From Synechococcus sp. (GTDB taxonomy: Bacteria > Cyanobacteriota > Cyanobacteriia > PCC-6307 > Cyanobiaceae): 64,000 nt of DNA. A program made the translations under genes and the position numbers. This document shows, piece after piece, positions 1 to 8,190 of this stretch (its first letter is position 1; every line of letters starts with the position of its first letter). The stretch lies in NCBI GenBank assembly GCA_047285535.1, contig JBJBDC010000001.1, positions 2,208,136 through 2,272,135 of the forward strand, in the 5' to 3' direction. Below the pieces are notes generated by a model. It saw only the letters and a list, made by a program, of their open reading frames with translations. It did no database searches and was not told where the DNA came from.

Positions 1-803
1 ATTGAACATTGAATCGAACCGTTACAACATATTCTTCATCAATTCCAAATAAGTAGTCATAACTTCAATTAGTCTTTAACTGGTATATTGATATCATGTT
101 TAATGTGTTGGATTGTCATTAGAGCCATAGCCCATGCAAATGGATCAAAGGATTAGCAAGTTAAGCATCAAATAAAATCAACCAATAGAATAGCGCAATT
201 AAACAACAAGGATATAGCTTTGCAAGCTCGACATCAAATATTTTTTGACCAAAGGGAAATTTTGTTTTTAGCTACTGGGATGACAAATCAAAGTCAGATG
301 GTAAGCAAATAGATGGAAGTGAAAGCCCAAAACATTTAACATAGCAAATATCAATTTAATTACCTTTGCATCAATATTCTTTTTAAGAGTCGCATCCAAA
401 GATTATTTAGTACTTTTAAAACAACGAAATAAAGACAGGTCAAATTCCACAGGAAAATTTCGCACGTGTCTATATTTCCTCAACACCAAAGCCAACAAAA
501 TAAAACATATGAATAACCTAATGCAGTTTACTCCTACGCATCAATTCACGATTAACTACTCATGAAGTTAGTCACAATAAAATAGACTTACCAGATACTT
601 GAATCTCCTCTTTGATGAGTTTTATTGACGAGAGGTAAACTCATTAAAACTAGAATGATGTAGAATAAAACAGAAGAAAGAAAAATAGGAGACACTAAGA
701 GACATTCCTCAATCATGCTTTAAGGCAATATGCGGAACATGCGTTCCAGCACTCAAACCCGTCTTCACGACCAAGAACACAGTCATAGCAAGAGTTTTTG
801 AAA

Positions 804-1130
804 ATGTCTTACTTCACATGGAAAGAAGCCGGCCTCACAAGCGACTGTGCAAGCCTTGAAGCCATGGCCTCCCGCTTTGAAGAAGCCGCAAGTTTGATGC
901 GCCGAATGGCACAACAGGGGTTTGAACTCGACACTCAAGGCCGTCAACAACGCATCACCCATAGCGATTCAGAGGTGTTCGAGTCTTGGGGGTTTATCAA
1001 TGAGGAATCAGCCTTCCGACAACTCACCTTGATCAGCGATCCAACCTTTGGATCTCCTTCAAACTCATCAGCCGCGACGGAATTCGCCGATCAACCACAC
1101 CAAGACAAAAGCCAAGGACGACACACCTAA
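804..1130 (+). CDS. Hypothetical protein upstream of purT (intact copy)
   Basis: ORF 798..1130, ATG at 804 (MSYFTWKEAGLTSDCASLEAMASRFEE...). A second 5'-truncated copy exists at 2679-2986. Confidence 0.7.
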   Translation: MSYFTWKEAGLTSDCASLEAMASRFEEAASLMRRMAQQGFELDTQGRQQRITHSDSEVFESWGFINEESAFRQLTLISDPTFGSPSNSSAATEFADQPHQDKSQGRHT

Positions 1131-1341
1131 ATACACCAAAACCCATTTCTGAATAGTCGCAATCTCCCAGCCGAACAGCAACCCATTGGCGGCATCGCCA
1201 GCCGTTGTGAACGCAAGTAGCAAAAGCATGAGGACTAAGCGAGAAGATCAAGCCATGCTGCCTTGAAACTTGCCATGACGAACTTCCCAAAAACACTGAT
1301 GCTGCTCGGCAGCGGTGAACTGGGCAAAGAAGTAGCGATCG
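823..1341. repeat. 519-bp direct repeat, copy 1
   Basis: Aligns without gaps to 2679-3197 (offset 1856). I count 7 substitutions, at 831, 847, 924, 930, 1197, 1219 and 1304. Confidence 0.97.
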
Positions 1342-1415
1342 TCAATCGATTTCAAACCCAACCAGTGTTGAAAACTAATGACAAAAATCAACAAGTAACT
1401 CCATGTTTCCATTAA
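1275..1415 (+). pseudogene. purT: Truncated 5' fragment of purT (22 codons) running into insert sequence
   Basis: ATG 1275 encodes MTNFPKTLMLLGSGELGKEVAI, identical to the PurT N-terminus, then unrelated VNRFQTQP...FH and TAA at 1413-1415. Confidence 0.9.
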
Positions 1416-1460
1416 AAAATTCAGCTACCAATAAGCCATAAAGGCACCATTGAAATATTA

Positions 1461-1469
1461 TGCTACGAT
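1461..1469 (+). promoter_or_regulatory. Putative extended -10 promoter (TGnTACGAT) for the cassette gene
   Basis: TG-C-TACGAT ends 20 nt upstream of the GTG start at 1490. AT-rich context makes a chance match possible. Confidence 0.3.
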
Positions 1470-1489
1470 GAGAAAAATTAATTCGAAGA

Positions 1490-2311
1490 GTGGTTGCAAG
1501 ATTTATCTCTAAAGCACTGGTCACTTCATTTTTATTTGGCTTAAGTGCCCATGCTTCACCTAAGCACGAAGCAAAAGATTTTTCTACAGATAGTTTTCCA
1601 AAATGGCACTACAACATTAACTCAAACTCATCAATTTCAGATTTTAAAACTTCTAATCCCATCATCTCAACGTCAGCTGATTCAGAACCAACAGATAGAA
1701 CAACCAAAAAGATCAAACCCAAAAACGCTATTGAAATCAAATATGGAATGTATTCATCTGGATTTTGGTTTCCAATACAACCTCAAAATGGGATCAGCAA
1801 TTGGGAATACAATAGTTGCAACTCGTTCTTCTTCTGTAGCGAAGACGGTTTATATGGAGGCAATGTAGAGCTAAAATATATACGTAGATTAGCTTCTTCC
1901 GGACGCCATCATCTTGATTTAGATGCGTCTGCAAGTTTAGGCTGGCAATCCCCTCAGATTGAACAAAGTGATTCTTTAAACAAAGAATTTTTAGTCGCCA
2001 GGACGGGAGGTAATAGGCAGTTTTTTGGAACATTTAGCTTGATTCCAACATATCGCTTCAATGTTAATAAATGGTTGGGGTTAGGGATTGGTACCGGAAT
2101 TAATTATGCAACTGACATACCAGACGACATTGGAGGAAATCAGTTGAATGCGGCAGCGAATTTTGAAATTGCCGTTAAACCATCGTCTTCTAACGATCTT
2201 GAGTTGACCTTTGCATTCCAACATCGCTGTGCTTTTTTCGGAACCTTGAACGAAGATGGTGAAATCACTGGATCTAATTGGTATGCATTGGGAGTAAGAA
2301 CATGGTTCTAA
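1490..2311 (+). CDS. Outer-membrane beta-barrel protein, PagL/acyloxyacyl-hydrolase-like (putative lipid A-modifying enzyme)
   Basis: Signal peptide ending in AHA-S; amphipathic strands (LIPTYRFNV, LGLGIGTGINY, NFEIAVK, LELTFAFQH); HRCAFFG...GSN; C-terminal beta-signal WYALGVRTWF. The barrel call is solid, the enzyme family is inference. Confidence 0.6.
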   Translation: MVARFISKALVTSFLFGLSAHASPKHEAKDFSTDSFPKWHYNINSNSSISDFKTSNPIISTSADSEPTDRTTKKIKPKNAIEIKYGMYSSGFWFPIQPQNGISNWEYNSCNSFFFCSEDGLYGGNVELKYIRRLASSGRHHLDLDASASLGWQSPQIEQSDSLNKEFLVARTGGNRQFFGTFSLIPTYRFNVNKWLGLGIGTGINYATDIPDDIGGNQLNAAANFEIAVKPSSSNDLELTFAFQHRCAFFGTLNEDGEITGSNWYALGVRTWF

Positions 2312-2678
2312 ATACCATAAAACTACTGCTTCCATTAAATTCCGAATTCAAATAAAAGCAACTCTTTAATACCATCTAATTTCGCTAAACCAAGCTTTCG
2401 ACTAAACCCCTTAACAATGTCCTTTTTAAAGTAAAGAGTAAATCACACGCAAATCAGTAAACCAATAAAAAATTTAACCCCACTTTTGATCACAGTACAT
2501 TCATGCAATGCAAAAACTCTCAAGCAAATACAAAATAATCACAAACACAAGCCCTCAATAATCAGTTCAACTCATCAATACCATTAGATCATCCGCATAT
2601 CACTATGCCAAATCTTGTTCTCCTCTTAATCAAGTAAAGTTTTGAAGAAAAAGCCGAAGAGAATCATTATTTCTCTTC

Positions 2679-2986
2679 AAGAAGCCAGCCTCACAAGCGA
2701 CTATGCAAGCCTTGAAGCCATGGCCTCCCGCTTTGAAGAAGCCGCAAGTTTGATGCGCCGAATGGCACAACAGGGGTTTAAACTCAACACTCAAGGCCGT
2801 CAACAACGCATCACCCATAGCGATTCAGAGGTGTTCGAGTCTTGGGGGTTTATCAATGAGGAATCAGCCTTCCGACAACTCACCTTGATCAGCGATCCAA
2901 CCTTTGGATCTCCTTCAAACTCATCAGCCGCGACGGAATTCGCCGATCAACCACACCAAGACAAAAGCCAAGGACGACACACCTAA
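2679..2986 (+). pseudogene. 5'-truncated duplicate of the 804-1130 hypothetical gene
   Basis: Lacks the native N-terminal codons (MSYFTW..) and carries four G>A non-synonymous changes. The ORF track start at 2642 lies in cassette DNA. Confidence 0.7.
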
Positions 2987-3197
2987 ATACACCAAAACCC
3001 ATTTCTGAATAGTCGCAATCTCCCAGCCGAACAGCAACCCATTGGCGGCATCTCCAGCCGTTGTGAACGCAAGTGGCAAAAGCATGAGGACTAAGCGAGA
3101 AGATCAAGCCATGCTGCCTTGAAACTTGCCATGACGAACTTCCCAAAAACACTGATGCTTCTCGGCAGCGGTGAACTGGGCAAAGAAGTAGCGATCG
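2679..3197. repeat. 519-bp direct repeat, copy 2
   Basis: Matches 823-1341 and contains the functional purT start (ATG 3131). Confidence 0.97.
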
Positions 3198-4300
3198 CAG
3201 CCCAGAGACTTGGTTGTCAAGTCATCGCCTGCGACCGTTATGCAGGGGCACCAGCCATGCAGGTGGCTGATCAAGCTGAAGTGCTCACAATGACCGATCC
3301 AAATGCCCTGAAGGCTGTTGTCACCAAGCATCAACCTGATGTAGTGATCCCAGAAATTGAGGCGCTGGCTGTCGATGCCCTTCAAGAACTTGAAGATGAC
3401 GGCATCCAAGTGATTCCCACCGCAAGAGCGACAGCGGTGACGATGAATCGGGATCGGATTCGGAACCTGGCTGCTGGTGAGCTGGGTCTACGCACCGCCC
3501 GCTTTGCCTATGCCACTGATGCACAGGAACTCCATCGCGCCGCCAAACCGTTGGGTTGGCCTGTAGTCGTGAAACCTGTGATGAGTTCATCCGGGAAAGG
3601 TCAAAGCGTGGTCCATCGCGCCGCCGATTTAGATCAGGCCTGGGAGCAAGCCATGGCTGGATCCAGAGGAAGCTCCGAGCAAGTAATCGTGGAAGAATTT
3701 CTGCATTTCGATCTAGAAATCACCCTGCTCACCATCCGTCAACACGATGGAAGCACGTTGTTCTGCGCACCGATCGGTCATGAGCAAACCAACGGGGACT
3801 ACCAGTGCAGTTGGCAGCCGGCCCAGATCTCTGAAGACCAACTGCACCAGGCTCAGACGATGGCACAAGCAGTGACAAACAACCTGGGCGGTACTGGTCT
3901 CTTTGGCGTGGAATTCTTTCTGTGCGGCGATGAGGTGGTGTTTTCCGAGCTCTCTCCAAGACCGCACGACACCGGTCTTGTAACGCTGATCAGTCAAAAC
4001 CTGAGCGAATTTGACTTACATCTGCGAGCCGTACTCGGACTACCCATTCCCGCCATCACTACTACCAATGCAGCGGCTAGCCGGGTGATTCTGGCTGATA
4101 GTCAAGGAAACCAAGTGCAATTCAGGGGAGTTGAACAAGCCCTGAGGGAACCCGATACCAAGCTATTGCTGTTCGGGAAGAGGGAGGCCAGGCCAGGGCG
4201 GCGAATGGGGGTTGCATTAGCCCTTGGCAACAACATCAATGATGCCCAAGCCAAGGCAAATCGATCCGCAGCAGCCGTCGAGGTTCAGGTCAAAAATTAG
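3131..4300 (+). CDS. purT: Formate-dependent phosphoribosylglycinamide formyltransferase
   Basis: LLGSGELGKEV, KPVMSSSGKGQS, ELSPRPHDTG, RRMGVALA; ATP-grasp fold. Confidence 0.97.
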   Translation: MTNFPKTLMLLGSGELGKEVAIAAQRLGCQVIACDRYAGAPAMQVADQAEVLTMTDPNALKAVVTKHQPDVVIPEIEALAVDALQELEDDGIQVIPTARATAVTMNRDRIRNLAAGELGLRTARFAYATDAQELHRAAKPLGWPVVVKPVMSSSGKGQSVVHRAADLDQAWEQAMAGSRGSSEQVIVEEFLHFDLEITLLTIRQHDGSTLFCAPIGHEQTNGDYQCSWQPAQISEDQLHQAQTMAQAVTNNLGGTGLFGVEFFLCGDEVVFSELSPRPHDTGLVTLISQNLSEFDLHLRAVLGLPIPAITTTNAAASRVILADSQGNQVQFRGVEQALREPDTKLLLFGKREARPGRRMGVALALGNNINDAQAKANRSAAAVEVQVKN

Positions 4301-6444
4301 TTATGCCGTACTCGTCCACCCAAGAATCGGTAGTGCTGGATACCTTCCAGCACACCAGGCAATTGAGGTCGACTCGAAAAGTAAACACGCTGTTGCTGAC
4401 GAAAATCCTCTAAACAAGGATCGTGATCAGCCAAGACAACCGTGGCGGGTCGACCGCAAACCAACTCTCCATCCCCCTGCTGACTGGCTACCACAAGCAT
4501 CTGTTCCAACGGAAGTCCCCAGCGCAGAGCCAGGAAACGAATGGCTTCACTACGGGATGCCCTCAATGGCAGAACGTCAATAAACCAATGGCAGCGGAGC
4601 TGAGGACGAGCTACCTGACGACGTTGACGGAGTCGTTGACGGATCAAGGGAAGGATCTCATCTCCAACCTCTCGAATCGTGTAGCTCAGCTTGAAGGGAC
4701 CTTGATGCTCCAATCGCTGTAATTCAATGTGGTCTGTGAGGTCAGCGAGAGCCTCTTCAACACCCGAACGATCCCAATCCACACCGATCTGGGCCGACCA
4801 CAACCGATCAGCCTCGCTCTCTTGGCCATAGTGAATCGCTGTACCAGCTCCTGTGATCCAGACCTTTGGTTCAGGTAAAAGAAGTTCCGCAAATCGTTGC
4901 CGAGCAGCAGGCAACGACCGACCGGTCAGGATTCCTAATCCACACTGATCAAGTTGCTCGCGCAATGCCCTGAGCGCATCACCATCGGGCTCCTCCAAAC
5001 TGCTGTCGAGATCGAGTAAGAGCAAACGATCACCCAAAGGCTGGATCCCTTTGCTGGATGCGGACTGACTGGATGACAACACAGTTGGATTGGGGGCTGA
5101 CATCAGCCGCTCCTGCATCAACGCCAGATAGCGGCATACATGGGCATCCCAACTGAAATGACGACTGACCGCCTCCACACCGTTATCACTCCAACGGGTC
5201 CAGCGCTGATGATCTGAACCTGCACACTCCAATGCATCTTGAAGGGCTTCACGATCTGTTACATCGACAAGCAAACCGTTGTCACAGCGAGCAAGGATGT
5301 CCCTTGGACCTCCATCATCGGTCGCCACCATCGGCAGTCCGCAAGCCGCAGCTTCTAACAACGTGAGACCAAACGGTTCTGTAAGAGCAGGATTCACAAA
5401 CAAACCTCGGCGCTCCGCAGCCCAGCGATAAATGACCGGAATCTGATCACGACGATGCTGCTTGGGATAGGCAATGTGGCCGTAGAGGTTGTAACGATCA
5501 ACAAGATCAAACACCTGCTGAAACACATCTCGCTGCTGTTTCTCCATCTGCCTGGGATCGTCCCTACAACCGAGCACAAGCACCAAATTGTGACGCTGCC
5601 TTAAGACAGCAGAACGACCAAAAGCCTCAACCAGGGCAGGAATATTTTTGCGACGAACAGCTCTAGAAATCGCCAGCAACGGGGGCAACGCGGGCTGACG
5701 CAAAAAAGGAGTCAAGAGGGTCTCAACCTGATTGATCTCAGATGCTTCTGAGCCAGGGTGAAACCGGCGAGAATCCACACCAGGAGGCACGACCTGAGCG
5801 CGATCAGCACAGAACCTGCCGTAACGAGAATATTGCTGATCACATTCCTGACGCGTACTCGTGATGACCAGCTCGGCATGGGCGAGAGCTAATTCCTCCG
5901 CATCAATACGACGGCTAATGGAATACGTCTGCTCGATCTGCTGATGGTCTCCTCCTCCAGCTAACAGACGACGCTGTTTCTCACGACCAAGCGAATGTCC
6001 CGTAAACACCAAGGGGATCCCCAGACGACGACTCAGCAGAGCCCCGACATAACCGGCATCGGCGTAATGGGCGTGAATCCAGTCGGGTCGATGCTCAGGC
6101 TTCTGAAGGTGGACCACAAGCTGATCGGCCAGATCCTCGAGATAGGGCCAGAGCAACTCCTTACGCAAATAGCGCTTTGGGCCGAAGGCAAAACGCTGAA
6201 TAGCAGCACCAGCCGCAATGGCCTCCATGGGCTGTGCGTAATCGGCCGACACCCGTCTGTCCTGAATTAAACGAGTCACTACATCCACTCGCTCCACTTC
6301 GGCCCTAGCCGCAAGGCTGCGGACCAATTCGAGCACGTAAAGAGTTTGACCACCGGTATCAGCATCCCGTCCCAGTTCCAAATCATGGGAGCGGAGCAGT
6401 CCGTGAAGATGGAGATGGAGAAGCCGAAAACCCACAATCAACAT
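4297..6444 (-). CDS. sps: Sucrose-phosphate synthase (GT4 domain plus C-terminal SPP-like HAD domain)
   Basis: ELGRDADTGGQ, HAHYADAG, GHSLG, NPALTEPFGLTLLEAAA; C-terminal LDLDSSL. Confidence 0.92.
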   Translation of the reverse strand: MLIVGFRLLHLHLHGLLRSHDLELGRDADTGGQTLYVLELVRSLAARAEVERVDVVTRLIQDRRVSADYAQPMEAIAAGAAIQRFAFGPKRYLRKELLWPYLEDLADQLVVHLQKPEHRPDWIHAHYADAGYVGALLSRRLGIPLVFTGHSLGREKQRRLLAGGGDHQQIEQTYSISRRIDAEELALAHAELVITSTRQECDQQYSRYGRFCADRAQVVPPGVDSRRFHPGSEASEINQVETLLTPFLRQPALPPLLAISRAVRRKNIPALVEAFGRSAVLRQRHNLVLVLGCRDDPRQMEKQQRDVFQQVFDLVDRYNLYGHIAYPKQHRRDQIPVIYRWAAERRGLFVNPALTEPFGLTLLEAAACGLPMVATDDGGPRDILARCDNGLLVDVTDREALQDALECAGSDHQRWTRWSDNGVEAVSRHFSWDAHVCRYLALMQERLMSAPNPTVLSSSQSASSKGIQPLGDRLLLLDLDSSLEEPDGDALRALREQLDQCGLGILTGRSLPAARQRFAELLLPEPKVWITGAGTAIHYGQESEADRLWSAQIGVDWDRSGVEEALADLTDHIELQRLEHQGPFKLSYTIREVGDEILPLIRQRLRQRRQVARPQLRCHWFIDVLPLRASRSEAIRFLALRWGLPLEQMLVVASQQGDGELVCGRPATVVLADHDPCLEDFRQQQRVYFSSRPQLPGVLEGIQHYRFLGGRVRHN

Positions 6445-6675
6445 TCAACAGAACAAGACATCAGGTGCATGCCTTGATTAGTAATTAAGTCGTTCAAACA
6501 AATCAAAAGTTGAAGACATCCTTATAAATCAGCAACTTCAAACGCTTAATTTTGCTAAAAAACCAGTCTGAGCCAGTTTCTTAAGCCCTTGAAAACGGCT
6601 CAATCCAATCTCAATCTGATGATGAAATGCAACGGAAACGGATAGGTTCGTTCCGATTCATTAAGTGAAGAGACC

Positions 6676-8190
6676 TCAGAACTGACTGGTCACATCCACC
6701 AAAGGTATCGAGCTATTACCCCAACCTCCTCCACTGAAGGTATGAGGGGACGGAACAGACAGCTGTTCATTGATCCAAGCCAAAATCAATGCCCCGAGAA
6801 TCGGAGGTTCCTTTTGGTCTGCAGGAGCCCAAAGATTGAAGTGACTTCCACCCGAAGCCAGCACAAGGCGATGACCATTCTCCAGAGGCTTTCCTTCCCT
6901 AAATGGCACCACTGCCTCAGGCCCCGAAGGAACAACCCAATCTTTAGTGCCACTCACGAACAACACCTTCGCCTGCAGAGAAGGACCGCTCGACTCATCA
7001 AAAAGAAGCCTCATGGGTGGACTTACAACTACTGCTGCTTTCACACGAGGATCAGCCAGCGATCCCTGATCAGCACCTGACAACCAGCTGCACTGCAAAA
7101 CCCAACTAAGATTTCGATCTGGATCAAGAAGATCCTTACAACGCGTTTTTAGCTTCTTGGTAGTGGTTTTTAAACCACTCAATTGCAACGCCGCCGTGGC
7201 ACCCCATGAATGCCCCACCACCGCGACGTCATCTGTATTCAATTGTTGGCCAGACAAGAAGGTGCCGGATTCGATGCCATTCAGAAGAGCGCTGACATCA
7301 AGAGGACGAAAACGCAGCTCCTTAGCGCTTGGCGGAGGTGCAACTCCGCTCAATAATTCCTTTTGCTGCTCAGAATCACTCCCTGGATGACGTGGCAGAA
7401 GCACCGTGTAGCCATTGGCTGCCAACAATCGACCCCAACCTTCAAAACTGGCAGGTTGATCCCACAACCCATGGGAGATCACCACAAGCCTTTGATTAGA
7501 TGATCGCTTCGGCTTCAAAATCGTGACATCAAGGGGTTGCGTTCGATGTGGCACCGAAAAACGCATCTGAGAACGAGTCCATCCGGACCCACCAGATTCA
7601 GCAACAGAATCTGATGCAGGAGTCATGGCTGTTCCAGCCTTAACTAGCAGGCGAGCATCGACCTGCTGAGCCCGAAGGCGTTTCGCGTTATAAGCCAAGG
7701 CCTGAAAATCTATCGATAACGATTCACCGGGAAGGCGACGAAACAAACCAAGCAAATTGGGCTCTCCATCCCGATAAGTGGCATCAAGAGCATCAGCCAA
7801 GCTGTGACCACTGGTATCGGGTGGCAAGCCGTCCACCTTCACCAACTGAGACGCCGAGAGCAAGGCCTGCTCAAACAATGGATTATCTACTGATTGCTCT
7901 AAAATCCCGGAAGTCTGCTTAGGGAATGGGGCTGTAAGGAACTCACCAAGAAGGCGAGAAACAGAGCCATTTCCAGCTCGATCTAATTCTTGAAGATCAG
8001 GATTGGATGCAATCAATGCCTCAGCTGTACTTGCATCTTTCAAGTTGAGAGAAAACTGTGTCTGTAACAATGGCAAATTAATCAGGAGTCGTTCGACCGC
8101 TGAAACTGGTCTCGCAAAGGAAACACTCAAGAAAGACGCCAGTGCAACACTACGAATTCCAGAAAAACATCGACTAAAAAAAAGAGTCAT
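6676..8190 (-). CDS. Secreted alpha/beta hydrolase (DUF1400-like N-domain plus hydrolase domain)
   Basis: Signal peptide, VVISHGLW, nucleophile GHSWG, catalytic D (TKDWVVP) and H (GGSHFNL). Confidence 0.8.
   Translation of the reverse strand: MTLFFSRCFSGIRSVALASFLSVSFARPVSAVERLLINLPLLQTQFSLNLKDASTAEALIASNPDLQELDRAGNGSVSRLLGEFLTAPFPKQTSGILEQSVDNPLFEQALLSASQLVKVDGLPPDTSGHSLADALDATYRDGEPNLLGLFRRLPGESLSIDFQALAYNAKRLRAQQVDARLLVKAGTAMTPASDSVAESGGSGWTRSQMRFSVPHRTQPLDVTILKPKRSSNQRLVVISHGLWDQPASFEGWGRLLAANGYTVLLPRHPGSDSEQQKELLSGVAPPPSAKELRFRPLDVSALLNGIESGTFLSGQQLNTDDVAVVGHSWGATAALQLSGLKTTTKKLKTRCKDLLDPDRNLSWVLQCSWLSGADQGSLADPRVKAAVVVSPPMRLLFDESSGPSLQAKVLFVSGTKDWVVPSGPEAVVPFREGKPLENGHRLVLASGGSHFNLWAPADQKEPPILGALILAWINEQLSVPSPHTFSGGGWGNSSIPLVDVTSQF

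Follow-up and report, generated by a model that had tools for sequence, protein, structure and literature searches.

The purT locus of this Synechococcus sp. genome carries a low-GC insert with a single predicted envelope gene, held between two direct copies of the neighbouring core DNA. It is rather probable that this structure is a fixed insertion-duplication, generated at a hot spot for islands by homology-assisted recombination, without the help of an integrase or a transposase. The stretch analysed (the window) comprises 64,000 nucleotides, and positions are counted along it unless a genome is named.

The two direct repeats lie at 823..1341 and 2679..3197, with a spacing of 1856 nt between the copies. 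Each is 519 nt long, and alignment by MAFFT together with a base-by-base script gave seven mismatches and no gaps, which amounts to 98.7% identity. The mismatches fall at 831, 847, 924, 930, 1197, 1219 and 1304 of the left copy (2687 to 3160 in the right copy). The ends of the repeat are sharp, as base 822 differs from 2678 and base 1342 from 3198. Between the copies lies the insert, or cargo, of 1337 nt (1342..2678), with a GC content of 0.36 against 0.52 for the repeats. A search of the whole genome, a single contig of 3,025,339 nt, returned exactly two copies of the repeat and one of the insert. All that the initial annotation had stated about the near-identical, gapless repeats around unique AT-rich DNA is, thus, borne out.

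The repeated segment is derived from the host. It runs from a conserved small gene, minus its first 19 nt, through the first 22 codons of purT. The intact copy of the small gene (804..1130, plus strand; 108 aa, MSYFTWKEAGLT...) begins at ATG 804; its start and N-terminus align with six relatives, and the translations of five of them agree. A scan of its protein found no Pfam or NCBIfam family. As the repeat starts 19 nt inside this gene, the right copy (2679..2986, plus strand) is without codons 1-6. It is a decaying copy with three replacements, G to S, C to Y and E to K, which hit residues invariant in five relatives. For purT, the situation is reversed. The left copy, which starts at ATG 1275, is cut after 22 native codons and continues for 24 insert-derived codons up to a stop (1275..1415, plus strand), as judged from the sequence, the list of open reading frames and the N-termini of relatives. 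The right copy, from ATG 3131, is whole (3131..4300, plus strand) and encodes the formate-dependent GAR transformylase, with Pfam matches to ATP-grasp (2.1e-59) and PurT_C (2.4e-21). Each flanking gene therefore keeps one working copy, the small gene on the left and purT on the right, as had been proposed, while the opposite copies are truncated. In annotation, the truncated purT and the truncated small gene should be treated as pseudogene fragments and not as errors. The list of open reading frames also holds a candidate gene inside the repeat, a possible 53-aa membrane protein on the minus strand (1068..1229, with a second copy at 2924-3085). It has no Pfam or NCBIfam family; one of the relatives, G001, has a comparable open frame.

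The ancestral state of the locus is preserved in related genomes. In six relatives, one contiguous stretch aligns both to 805-1341 and to 2679 onward, so the segment is present there as a single copy, and this is the insert-free arrangement that the initial annotation had anticipated. The locus is matched by 23 of 40 other genomes, none of which covers the cargo; the genomes with the empty site all belong to species other than that of the host strain.

The neighbourhood of the left repeat was missed in the initial annotation, along with the hot spot and a second structure in the same genome. Before the left repeat, between mraY and the small gene, lies about 1.9 kb of foreign AT-rich DNA, a stretch of 1923 nt (window -1120 to 803) labelled IS1, the right part of which occupies 1..803. 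Its GC content is 0.31-0.38, it has no open reading frame of at least 60 aa (the longest reach 50-59 aa), and it is absent from 45 other species of the genus. IS1, which differs from the cargo, is the hot spot's resident DNA in this genome. The gap from mraY to the small gene measures 1923 nt in this genome (G000), 1417 nt in G018, 1280 nt in G009, 373 nt in G016 and 68 nt in G007, and its contents are mutually unrelated among the five. In G018, the gap holds an ORF of 253 aa; in G009, one of 230 aa that is ParA-like by eye only. These alignments mark the gap as a hot spot for insertions within the genus. Some 19-27 nt separate the right cargo junction from the point at which related genomes switch sequence; being 19 nt within the small gene, the junction does not sit precisely on the usual boundary. 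Since the inserts of G018, G009 and G016 have no long flanking repeats, duplication is not the usual outcome at this hot spot.

The initial annotation had also suggested looking for other cargo at the same purT site, and none came to light. A search with the 50-aa truncated-purT fusion ORF gave ten candidates, none with the fusion tail, and all of them were ordinary or otherwise truncated purT N-termini. Similarly, in the related genomes of 45 species, neither the cargo nor IS1 was found at the purT hot spot.

The second structure lies at rnc. Here, direct repeats of 778 nt (G000 2441267-2442044 and 2443990-2444767), 100% identical and with a GC content of 0.60, flank 1945 nt of DNA with a GC content of 0.40 and one ORF of 457 aa (cargo 2). 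The single-copy site is represented by G046, and the left junction is the exact point where G018, G006 and G012 diverge from G046 and G000. The whole ORF of cargo 2 gave a weak Pfam match to the metallo-beta-lactamase fold, and a 60-residue piece of it gave no Pfam match. A relative of cargo 2, 59% identical, is found in a G015 island; the ORF next to it has a C-terminus that looks, by eye, like the end of a tyrosine recombinase. If the host copies are written as A and A', the layout is IS1, A, cargo, A at purT, and A', cargo 2, A', island with a 211-aa ORF at rnc. The rnc structure is of the same build as that at purT and is the second case in one genome, two cases in one genome being a small sample.

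Other repeat pairs were also considered. A third candidate (G000 1655708-1655926 and 1658070-1658288; 219 nt, 92% identity) was set aside, as its repeats are members of a dispersed family that is found in several copies in each of the genomes of the genus. The remaining pairs from the self-comparison were either tandem paralogues, by eye a psbA-like pair and a porin-like pair, or repeats within large genes. A common mobile backbone or a shared end motif was likewise rejected, as blastn-short comparison of IS1, the purT cargo (cargo 1), cargo 2 and the third insert gave only chance words of 9-17 nt.

The marks of known mobile elements are lacking at purT. A Pfam scan of the ORFs from -15 kb to +20 kb found housekeeping genes only, with no integrase or transposase; no short target-site duplication was found, and no inverted repeats are present at the cargo ends. 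This absence had already been reported for all but the inverted repeats, and it extends to tRNA, of which none occurs in the 8-kb locus, and to RNA genes and Rfam matches at the locus. The nearest remnant resembling PF00589 lies at a distance of some 62-64 kb and is interrupted by stop codons. A transposon or insertion sequence is not indicated, as the only cargo ORF of at least 110 aa shows no transposase family and the insert is present once. Nor do the features agree with an integrase-borne island such as a tycheposon, an ICE or a prophage, there being no integrase and the repeats being 519 nt of coding DNA. Tycheposons of marine picocyanobacteria are described, in the available part of the report, as carrying integrases and attachment motifs of about 40 nt that are partial tRNAs (bioRxiv 10.1101/2020.12.28.424599). 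As in the portion of that work available, flexible genes are added here at island sites that are used repeatedly, and the ecological group is the same; unlike the tycheposons described there, the present structures have neither integrase nor tRNA, and their repeats consist of protein-coding core DNA, 519-778 nt in length (bioRxiv 10.1101/2020.12.28.424599).

The cargo gene (1490..2311, plus strand) encodes 273 aa, with a signal peptide, a disordered linker of about 50 residues and a small predicted outer-membrane beta-barrel ending in ...RTWF. Shorter overlapping frames in the insert reach 107 aa in the ORF list. The protein has no Pfam or NCBIfam family. Besides itself, 21 homologues were found, all of them from marine metagenomes, and their alignment displays conserved barrel motifs, hydrophobic N-termini and the ...WF end, along with a C..C pair and the motif HRCAFFG that are the family's own. 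In the AlphaFold2 model, the protein is all-beta, with pLDDT above 80 across most of 120-273, and DSSP assigns 12 strands in 79-272. Foldseek returned 22 PDB matches at E of 0.001 or below; the matches listed are outer-membrane barrels, including Ail, OmpX, the OmpA transmembrane domain, NspA and PagL (E 1.5e-5 to 2.3e-4), with target-normalised TM-scores of about 0.5-0.63 and sequence identities of 8-14%. With these proteins, the cargo model shares the all-beta barrel, the signal peptide and the C-terminal aromatic residue; unlike them, it has an extra low-confidence N-terminal linker and motifs of its own at that low identity. On the strength of the model and the homologue alignment, the cargo protein is a predicted signal-peptide outer-membrane beta-barrel, and the earlier description of an envelope gene fits well. 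Its transcription may proceed from the duplicated purT promoter.

The source of the cargo was sought more widely. In sequenced genome contigs, 62 pattern matches were obtained and none was confirmed. Within the genus, 17 of 45 species gave weak matches only (E 5e-6 to 9e-4, 30-35% identity), in which cargo residues from about 132 to 270 align with the C-terminus of ORFs mostly of 1070-1100 aa. One of these weakly matching ORFs has 521 aa and lies on a short contig. A phage origin was rejected, as blastn of IS1, the repeat and the cargo against 50,697 phage records gave no match; the same applies to a viral source of the cargo, for which none of 169 pattern matches in viral contigs was confirmed. 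Three metagenome loci with cargo homologues have contexts other than the purT hot spot, and no long flanking repeats are seen at the metagenomic loci, the only pair being one of 31 nt in L037.

An assembly artefact or a chimeric contig was also considered, as repeats of such a size can mislead assemblers. The likelihood of such an artefact is negligible here. The genome is a complete single contig, and among the independent contigs of an isolate run, one of 1422 nt with the cargo runs into both repeats. Depth in the isolate contigs is 190.7 for the cargo, 201.4 and 209 for the flanks and 354.7 for the collapsed repeat; that is, the cargo stands at about 1x and the repeat at about 2x, with both repeat variants present. 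Further, a 556-nt metagenome contig from another study bridges the junction of the left repeat and the cargo. The seven differences between the copies are, moreover, patterned by function.

This pattern deserves attention on its own account. In the right copy, the derived bases (2687, 2703, 2780 and 3160) comprise the three replacements in the truncated small gene and one synonymous change in the live purT; in the left copy, they are 930, 1197 and 1219. Read from these bases, the two copies have decayed in a complementary, function-dependent way. The metagenome contig comes from a wild relative that is about 1% different and has the same junction. As it carries the ancestral bases at 1197 and 1219, these two left-copy changes are younger than the insertion. 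The divergence of the copies and the junction shared in the wild point to a long and stable retention, and both argue against a recent or labile state.

The initial annotation had further proposed an integrase-free on/off or copy-number switch, in which RecA recombination between the 519-nt repeats would regularly excise or amplify the 1856-nt unit and so set the presence or dose of the envelope protein. The repeats are long and similar enough for RecA, the genome has recA, and by geometry, excision would restore the ancestral locus exactly. The depth of the cargo is also 5-9% below that of the flanks, which could be explained by a small cargo-less subpopulation, but a deficit this small would be just as likely to result from the insert's low GC. 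Against the switch stand the depths of about 1x and 2x and the fact that, in four runs, no contig skips the unit or joins back on itself, contigs being blind to rare forms. An excised circle would have no replication gene, so its loss would be one-way. The seven fixed differences, the function-dependent decay and the shared wild junction also speak of long retention without homogenisation. A working switch is, thus, very improbable. RecA could still delete the cargo cleanly; in its behaviour, the structure is nevertheless a stable gain of a gene and not a switch.

Campbell-type single-crossover integration, or insertion-duplication, is known for non-replicating circles that carry a host fragment and for heterogenotes of the lambda dgal type. 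The initial annotation had read the locus as such an integration of a small circle. The geometry of insertion-duplication stands, with host copies bracketing the insert, complementary intact and truncated genes and a single-copy empty allele in relatives; the circle itself is represented by its end product only. As in the Campbell case, host segment, insert and host segment follow in direct order, the cut genes each have one intact and one truncated copy, and the arrangement is exactly reversible. Unlike it, the present case involves no vector, replicon, phage or integrase, the load is a single natural gene, one of the junctions lies at an island hot spot and the circle is hypothetical.

In the preferred reading of a fixed insertion-duplication, a 1.3-kb piece of DNA from the flexible pool, with one outer-membrane beta-barrel gene, would have joined the chromosome through the homology of neighbouring core DNA. 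The cargo would thereby have been left between two copies of the 519-nt segment (the small gene and purT codons 1-22), and because the segment was duplicated, every host gene would have kept one working copy. The most economical route would combine a single homologous exchange within the core segment with a single illegitimate join, placed at codon 22 of purT. It could take either of two forms: the single crossover of a small circle with cargo and adjacent core DNA, as might arise by imprecise excision from a donor's hot-spot island, or an unequal exchange between two chromosome copies with different hot-spot alleles. Both the route and the origin of the cargo in a hot-spot island are inferred, the route from the end product alone. 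The analysis revealed neither a circle nor a tandem junction, and neither an empty allele of the same strain nor a parental strain with a single allele, rare forms being invisible in contigs.

The junctions themselves offer some hints. A perfect hairpin with an 8-bp stem (GAAGAGAA, a 7-nt loop, TTCTCTTC; 2657..2678) ends exactly at the right cargo junction and appears terminator-like on the minus strand. At the purT side, the octamer GCGATCGC (3191-3198) spans the end of the right repeat within purT; the window has four occurrences of it and the whole genome of 3.03 Mb only 111. Short palindromes, therefore, touch both junctions. It was also observed that 2664-2678 (TTATTTC...), which overlaps the hairpin arm, resembles small-gene codons 3-5 of relatives; it may be a degenerate extension of the right repeat copy, or the resemblance may be due to chance.

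These palindromes could point to breakage and joining without homology. In a capture of that kind, a linear foreign fragment would have been joined at two illegitimate sites 519 nt apart, with the duplication as a by-product of filled-in staggered breaks, of template switching at a fork out and back upstream, or of joining to two sister chromosomes. The purT-side junction inside the infrequent octamer, the other junction at the foot of the hairpin and the lack of a shared end motif in the two cargos are all in keeping with it. However, two illegitimate joins would be needed in one event, Ku was not found in the genome, and the coincidence of junction and hot-spot boundary in both structures would go unexplained unless the boundaries are fragile. 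Such a capture is held to be unlikely, though it deserves some weight.

A further route has been documented in other bacteria. In homology-facilitated illegitimate recombination, foreign DNA is brought in by means of two joins, one of them homologous and the other illegitimate, and site-specific enzymes play no part, according to the available text of the reports (PMC2884548; PMC3240628). Linear DNA of a sister strain with another hot-spot allele would have found its homologous anchor in the flanking core gene and its illegitimate join in the resident island, and two island alleles would thus be stacked with donor core DNA between them. This would suit the layout of island, core copy and island seen at both loci, and the genome has comEC and recA. 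On the other hand, a fragment that still had 519 nt of homology at its far end would, as a rule, complete its integration by homologous exchange, with replacement of the island. As two of the left-copy differences post-date the event, divergence between donor and recipient is not needed to account for the mismatches. To our knowledge, the published outcomes of this process are insertions with deletions and not duplications, which also counts against it. The products described in the accessible portions of these reports are insertions or replacements, and unlike the present structures, they have no duplicated anchor of several hundred nucleotides (PMC2884548; PMC3240628). The route in this form is considered distinctly unlikely.

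Merodiploidy induced by transformation in Streptococcus pneumoniae offers another comparison. There, unequal exchange between chromatids makes a tandem duplication, and an intact gene is kept beside a disrupted copy, as is the case here (PMC3784515, in the part available). The pneumococcal duplications given in the same portion span 100-900 kb, and IS-derived repeats that were already in place form their boundaries; the present ones, in contrast, measure 0.5-0.8 kb, contain foreign DNA where the copies are joined and do without an IS (PMC3784515).

How marine picocyanobacteria gain their flexible genes is an open question. Most of their cells are without plasmids, transposons and prophages, as stated in the available part of one report (bioRxiv 10.1101/2020.12.28.424599), and for this reason, a natural example of gene gain by homology and one illegitimate join is useful. 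Two occurrences in one complete genome, at hot-spot boundaries, point to an integrase-independent route. They also provide a searchable signature, namely low-GC inserts enclosed by long direct repeats of core DNA that are nearly identical. It may be proposed, tentatively and with more doubt than confidence, that gene addition of this kind recurs at hot spots in marine picocyanobacteria, where a piece of an island together with adjacent core DNA would be recombined through core homology. If so, a new gene would be stacked behind a core segment, several hundred bases long, that has been duplicated, while the flanking genes stay alive; the duplication may give the newcomer a host promoter, and every gain would be reversible by RecA. 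The purT and rnc cases would then be footprints of the process, each with a junction at or near a hot-spot boundary. The purT case also illustrates how a gene-dense core can tolerate an insertion: the duplication preserves both neighbouring genes, and the redundant pieces then decay, which serves as a built-in clock for the insertion event.

In the complete, single-contig genome under study (G000; 3,025,339 nt, GC 0.506; window at C1:2208136-2272135), two direct repeats are present at window positions 823-1341 and 2679-3197. Aligned base by base, they are 519 nt long, gap-free and differ at 7 positions, and a search of the genome returned exactly these two copies. The 1337-nt insert between them (1342-2678) has a GC content of 0.36, against 0.52 for the repeats. 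Its sole open reading frame (ORF) of at least 110 aa lies at 1490-2311 (273 aa), and several shorter overlapping frames reach at most 107 aa. A conserved small gene (MSYFTWKEAGLT...) has its start codon at 804 according to an alignment with six related genomes, with which the translations of five relatives concur; the repeat, therefore, begins 19 nt into this gene, whose left copy is whole and whose right copy lacks codons 1-6. The purT start codons lie at 1275 (left) and 3131 (right). As the left repeat stops after codon 22, left purT is a stump that reads 24 codons into the insert; right purT is complete (Pfam: ATP-grasp, 2.1e-59; PurT_C, 2.4e-21). The initial annotation, which had described near-identical repeats around an AT-rich insert with complementary intact and broken genes, was correct on every point that could be checked.

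It had also seen no integrase or transposase, and a Pfam scan of 27 ORFs from -15 kb to +20 kb (negative positions being upstream of the window start) upheld this, with neither family found among them. The Pfam-matched ORFs are housekeeping only, and 2 have no family. One flank carries dnaK, aroE, argG and mraY, and the other purT, sps (sucrose-phosphate synthase), uvrA, recN and dnaN, some names being read from Pfam matches. The gene content (purT, sps, mraY and PsbQ), taken with the relatives, suggests a marine picocyanobacterium as the source. The nearest PF00589-like stretch, some 62-64 kb off and just beyond the window end (G000:C1:2272917-2273144), is a weak Phage_integrase-like remnant with four stop codons. 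No tRNA, Rfam match or phage similarity was found at the locus, and the insert ends carry no inverted repeat. The structure fits neither transposons nor integrase-borne islands, tycheposons included. Separately, GC drops to 0.39 at 6400-6700, between the sucrose-phosphate synthase gene and that of a 504-aa alpha/beta-hydrolase.

Among 40 other genomes, 23 matched the query at E <= 0.001, each over the repeat/purT part alone, and no match at that threshold covered the insert. In the six loci fetched, one single stretch aligns to both 805-1341 and 2679 onward; they are single-copy and cargo-less. The gap that separates mraY from the small gene has a different length in every lineage: 68 nt in G007, 373 nt in G016, 1280 nt in G009 (L018 14301-15580; low GC, with a 230-aa ORF that is ParA-like by eye), 1417 nt in G018 (L016 14467-15883; low GC, with a 253-aa ORF that is glutaredoxin/membrane-protein-like by eye) and 1923 nt in the source genome. 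This last filling, labelled IS1 (window -1120 to 803; L046 1881-3803; GC ~0.31-0.38), has no ORF of at least 60 aa and no Rfam match, and a search of 45 further species in the genus returned no relatives; it could be the remnant of an older insertion that has decayed, or else a non-coding element. Since the fillings, mostly of low GC, vary in length by lineage and are mutually unrelated, the gap is an insertion hot spot. In the relatives, these fillings are not bracketed by long repeats. In three more distant relatives, a GC-rich gene of ~395 aa, cation/proton antiporter-like by eye (L019 12266-13903, L020 11730-12980, L021 12129-13337), separates the small gene from purT; it is missing from the source genome and its closer relatives. 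In an ENA contig of 509 nt (P0030), the purT N-terminus departs from the family a few residues past ...EVAIAAQ, which may mean that a wild genome has a further purT gene broken at its 5' end, or that the assembly simply stops there.

The 7 differences between the repeats were polarised against five relatives (left-copy coordinates). Derived bases occur in the right copy at 831, 847 and 924, all in the truncated small gene, where the changes (G->S, C->Y and E->K) fall on residues invariant in the relatives, and at 1304, where the change in the live purT is synonymous; the left copy has them at 930, 1197 and 1219. In a marine metagenome of another study (X7), a 556-nt contig bridges the join of left repeat and cargo; it shows 6 differences, and at two of them, 1197 and 1219, it keeps the ancestral base. 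A 288-nt contig of X5, which bridges IS1 and the left repeat, is likewise ancestral at 930. Wild relatives differing by ~1% therefore have the junction too, and at least two of the left-copy changes, and probably the third as well, arose after the insertion. The copies were probably identical or nearly so at the start and drifted later where redundant. The structure is old and has been retained without gene conversion.

The 273-aa cargo protein has 21 homologues of 36-81% identity, all from metagenomic contigs of 0.8-2.5 kb; neither viral contigs nor 185,579 species genomes yielded any. JGI metagenome contigs supplied three relatives, one of them frameshifted, whose surroundings are unrelated and richer in GC. 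On L037, a metagenome contig, the family gene lies in two frames (2871-3772) beside a large subtilisin-like ORF and is likely a frameshifted pseudogene. No Pfam or NCBIfam family was found for the protein. In the homologue alignment, the N-terminus is hydrophobic, the linker varies, and the last 200 residues, with a ...WF end, are conserved. An AlphaFold2 model built on this alignment is all-beta (mean pLDDT 65.8; residues 1-73 below 50, most of 120-273 above 80), and Foldseek gave 22 PDB matches at E <= 0.001, those listed (Ail, OmpX, OmpA-TM, NspA, PagL and the rest) being outer-membrane barrels. These results support the earlier designation of an envelope gene. The ORF has the same orientation as the duplicated purT start and begins 215 nt 3' of it. 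Its own upstream DNA offers only a weak promoter-like site, and the copied purT promoter may drive its expression.

The proposal of a RecA-driven on/off or copy-number switch found no support. In the assembled contigs of the isolate run X2, depth was 201.4 for the left flank, 190.7 for a 1422-nt cargo contig reaching into both repeats, 354.7 for a collapsed 494-nt repeat contig (left-copy letters at 2 of the 7 variant sites) and 209 for the right flank, which is one cargo copy (~1x) and two repeat copies (~2x). No contig skipping or re-entering the unit was found in four runs, contigs being blind to rare forms. The genome has recA, and occasional RecA-mediated loss of the cargo may occur; by geometry, it would restore the ancestral locus. 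Such excision would be one-way because the 1856-nt circle has no replication function. Nothing points to programmed use of excision or amplification.

When the genome was compared with itself, a single further repeat pair showed the signature of the purT structure; it lies outside the window. Here, repeats of 778 nt, 100% identical (G000 2441267-2442044 and 2443990-2444767; L038 5268-8768 for the whole; GC 0.60), hold the 3' end of an ion-channel gene (20 codons) together with the entire rnc. They flank a 1945-nt insert (GC 0.40) with one 457-aa ORF, cargo 2, which has a weak metallo-beta-lactamase fold match. The channel gene is intact in the left copy alone, and the native upstream DNA of rnc is in the right copy alone; in G046, the site is single-copy. 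RNase P RNA and tRNA-Arg(CCT) lie ~1.1 kb to the right. Cargo 2 has one relative in the genus (G015, 59% identity), in an island with ribbon-helix-helix genes, next to a 184-aa ORF and an ORF with a tyrosine-recombinase-like C-terminus (both names by eye). That relative is bracketed by ~140-nt repeats of 80-84% identity (L048 1235-1374, 3620-3768), which are copies of paired small ribbon-helix-helix-like genes. A third candidate (G000:C1:1655708-1658288; L039 5709-8289), with a 522-aa LCAT/lipase-like ORF, was rejected, as its ~220-250-nt repeats belong to a dispersed family with several copies per genome across the genus. The genome also contains very long tandem arrays of perfectly identical units (525 nt across ~11.5 kb, 519 nt, 345 nt) in what are apparently giant surface-protein genes (G000:C1:133821-145377, 130708-133818, 2461264-2463351 and others).

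The right cargo junction of the purT structure (2678|2679) is 19 nt 3' of the small-gene start, and the relatives' hot-spot fillings stop 0-8 nt 5' of that start. At rnc, the left junction, 6 nt 5' of the rnc start, is the exact point at which G046 and the right copy part from G018, G006 and G012. The other junctions fall within core genes, at purT codon 22 and about channel codon 250. Each structure thus has one junction at or next to a boundary where lineages exchange DNA. The layouts are IS1, core repeat, cargo, core repeat at purT, and core repeat, cargo 2, core repeat, 211-aa-ORF island at rnc. Because of this island/core/island order and the lineage-variable boundary, we think that the cargo had lived in a hot-spot island before the duplication, so that the final event would have needed one illegitimate join and homology only. 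Imprecise excision could have produced a small circle that carried neighbouring core DNA and then re-integrated by a single crossover. Alternatively, unequal exchange could have occurred between chromosome copies with different hot-spot alleles, resembling transformation-induced merodiploids (PMC3784515). Both routes fit, and these data prefer neither; the Campbell-type geometry first suggested (a circle with host homology) agrees with the product and with the empty single-copy site in six relatives. A homology-free break-and-join origin is kept as a rival because both cargo junctions touch short palindromes: the purT-side one lies inside the octamer GCGATCGC (3191-3198; 111 genome copies against 48.5 expected from base composition), and the other lies at the base of a hairpin with a perfect 8-bp stem (2657-2678). 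However, no Ku was found in the genome.

The product matches Campbell-type insertion-duplication. The related literature comprises general work on homology-facilitated illegitimate recombination, merodiploidy and small variable segments, the flanking repeats of the last being mostly < 30 bp (PMC2884548). A limited literature search found no published core-DNA repeats of several hundred nt around single foreign genes in picocyanobacteria. The structure is rated as a natural instance of an already known type of event, and its recurrence in one genome and its link to hot-spot boundaries raise its interest.
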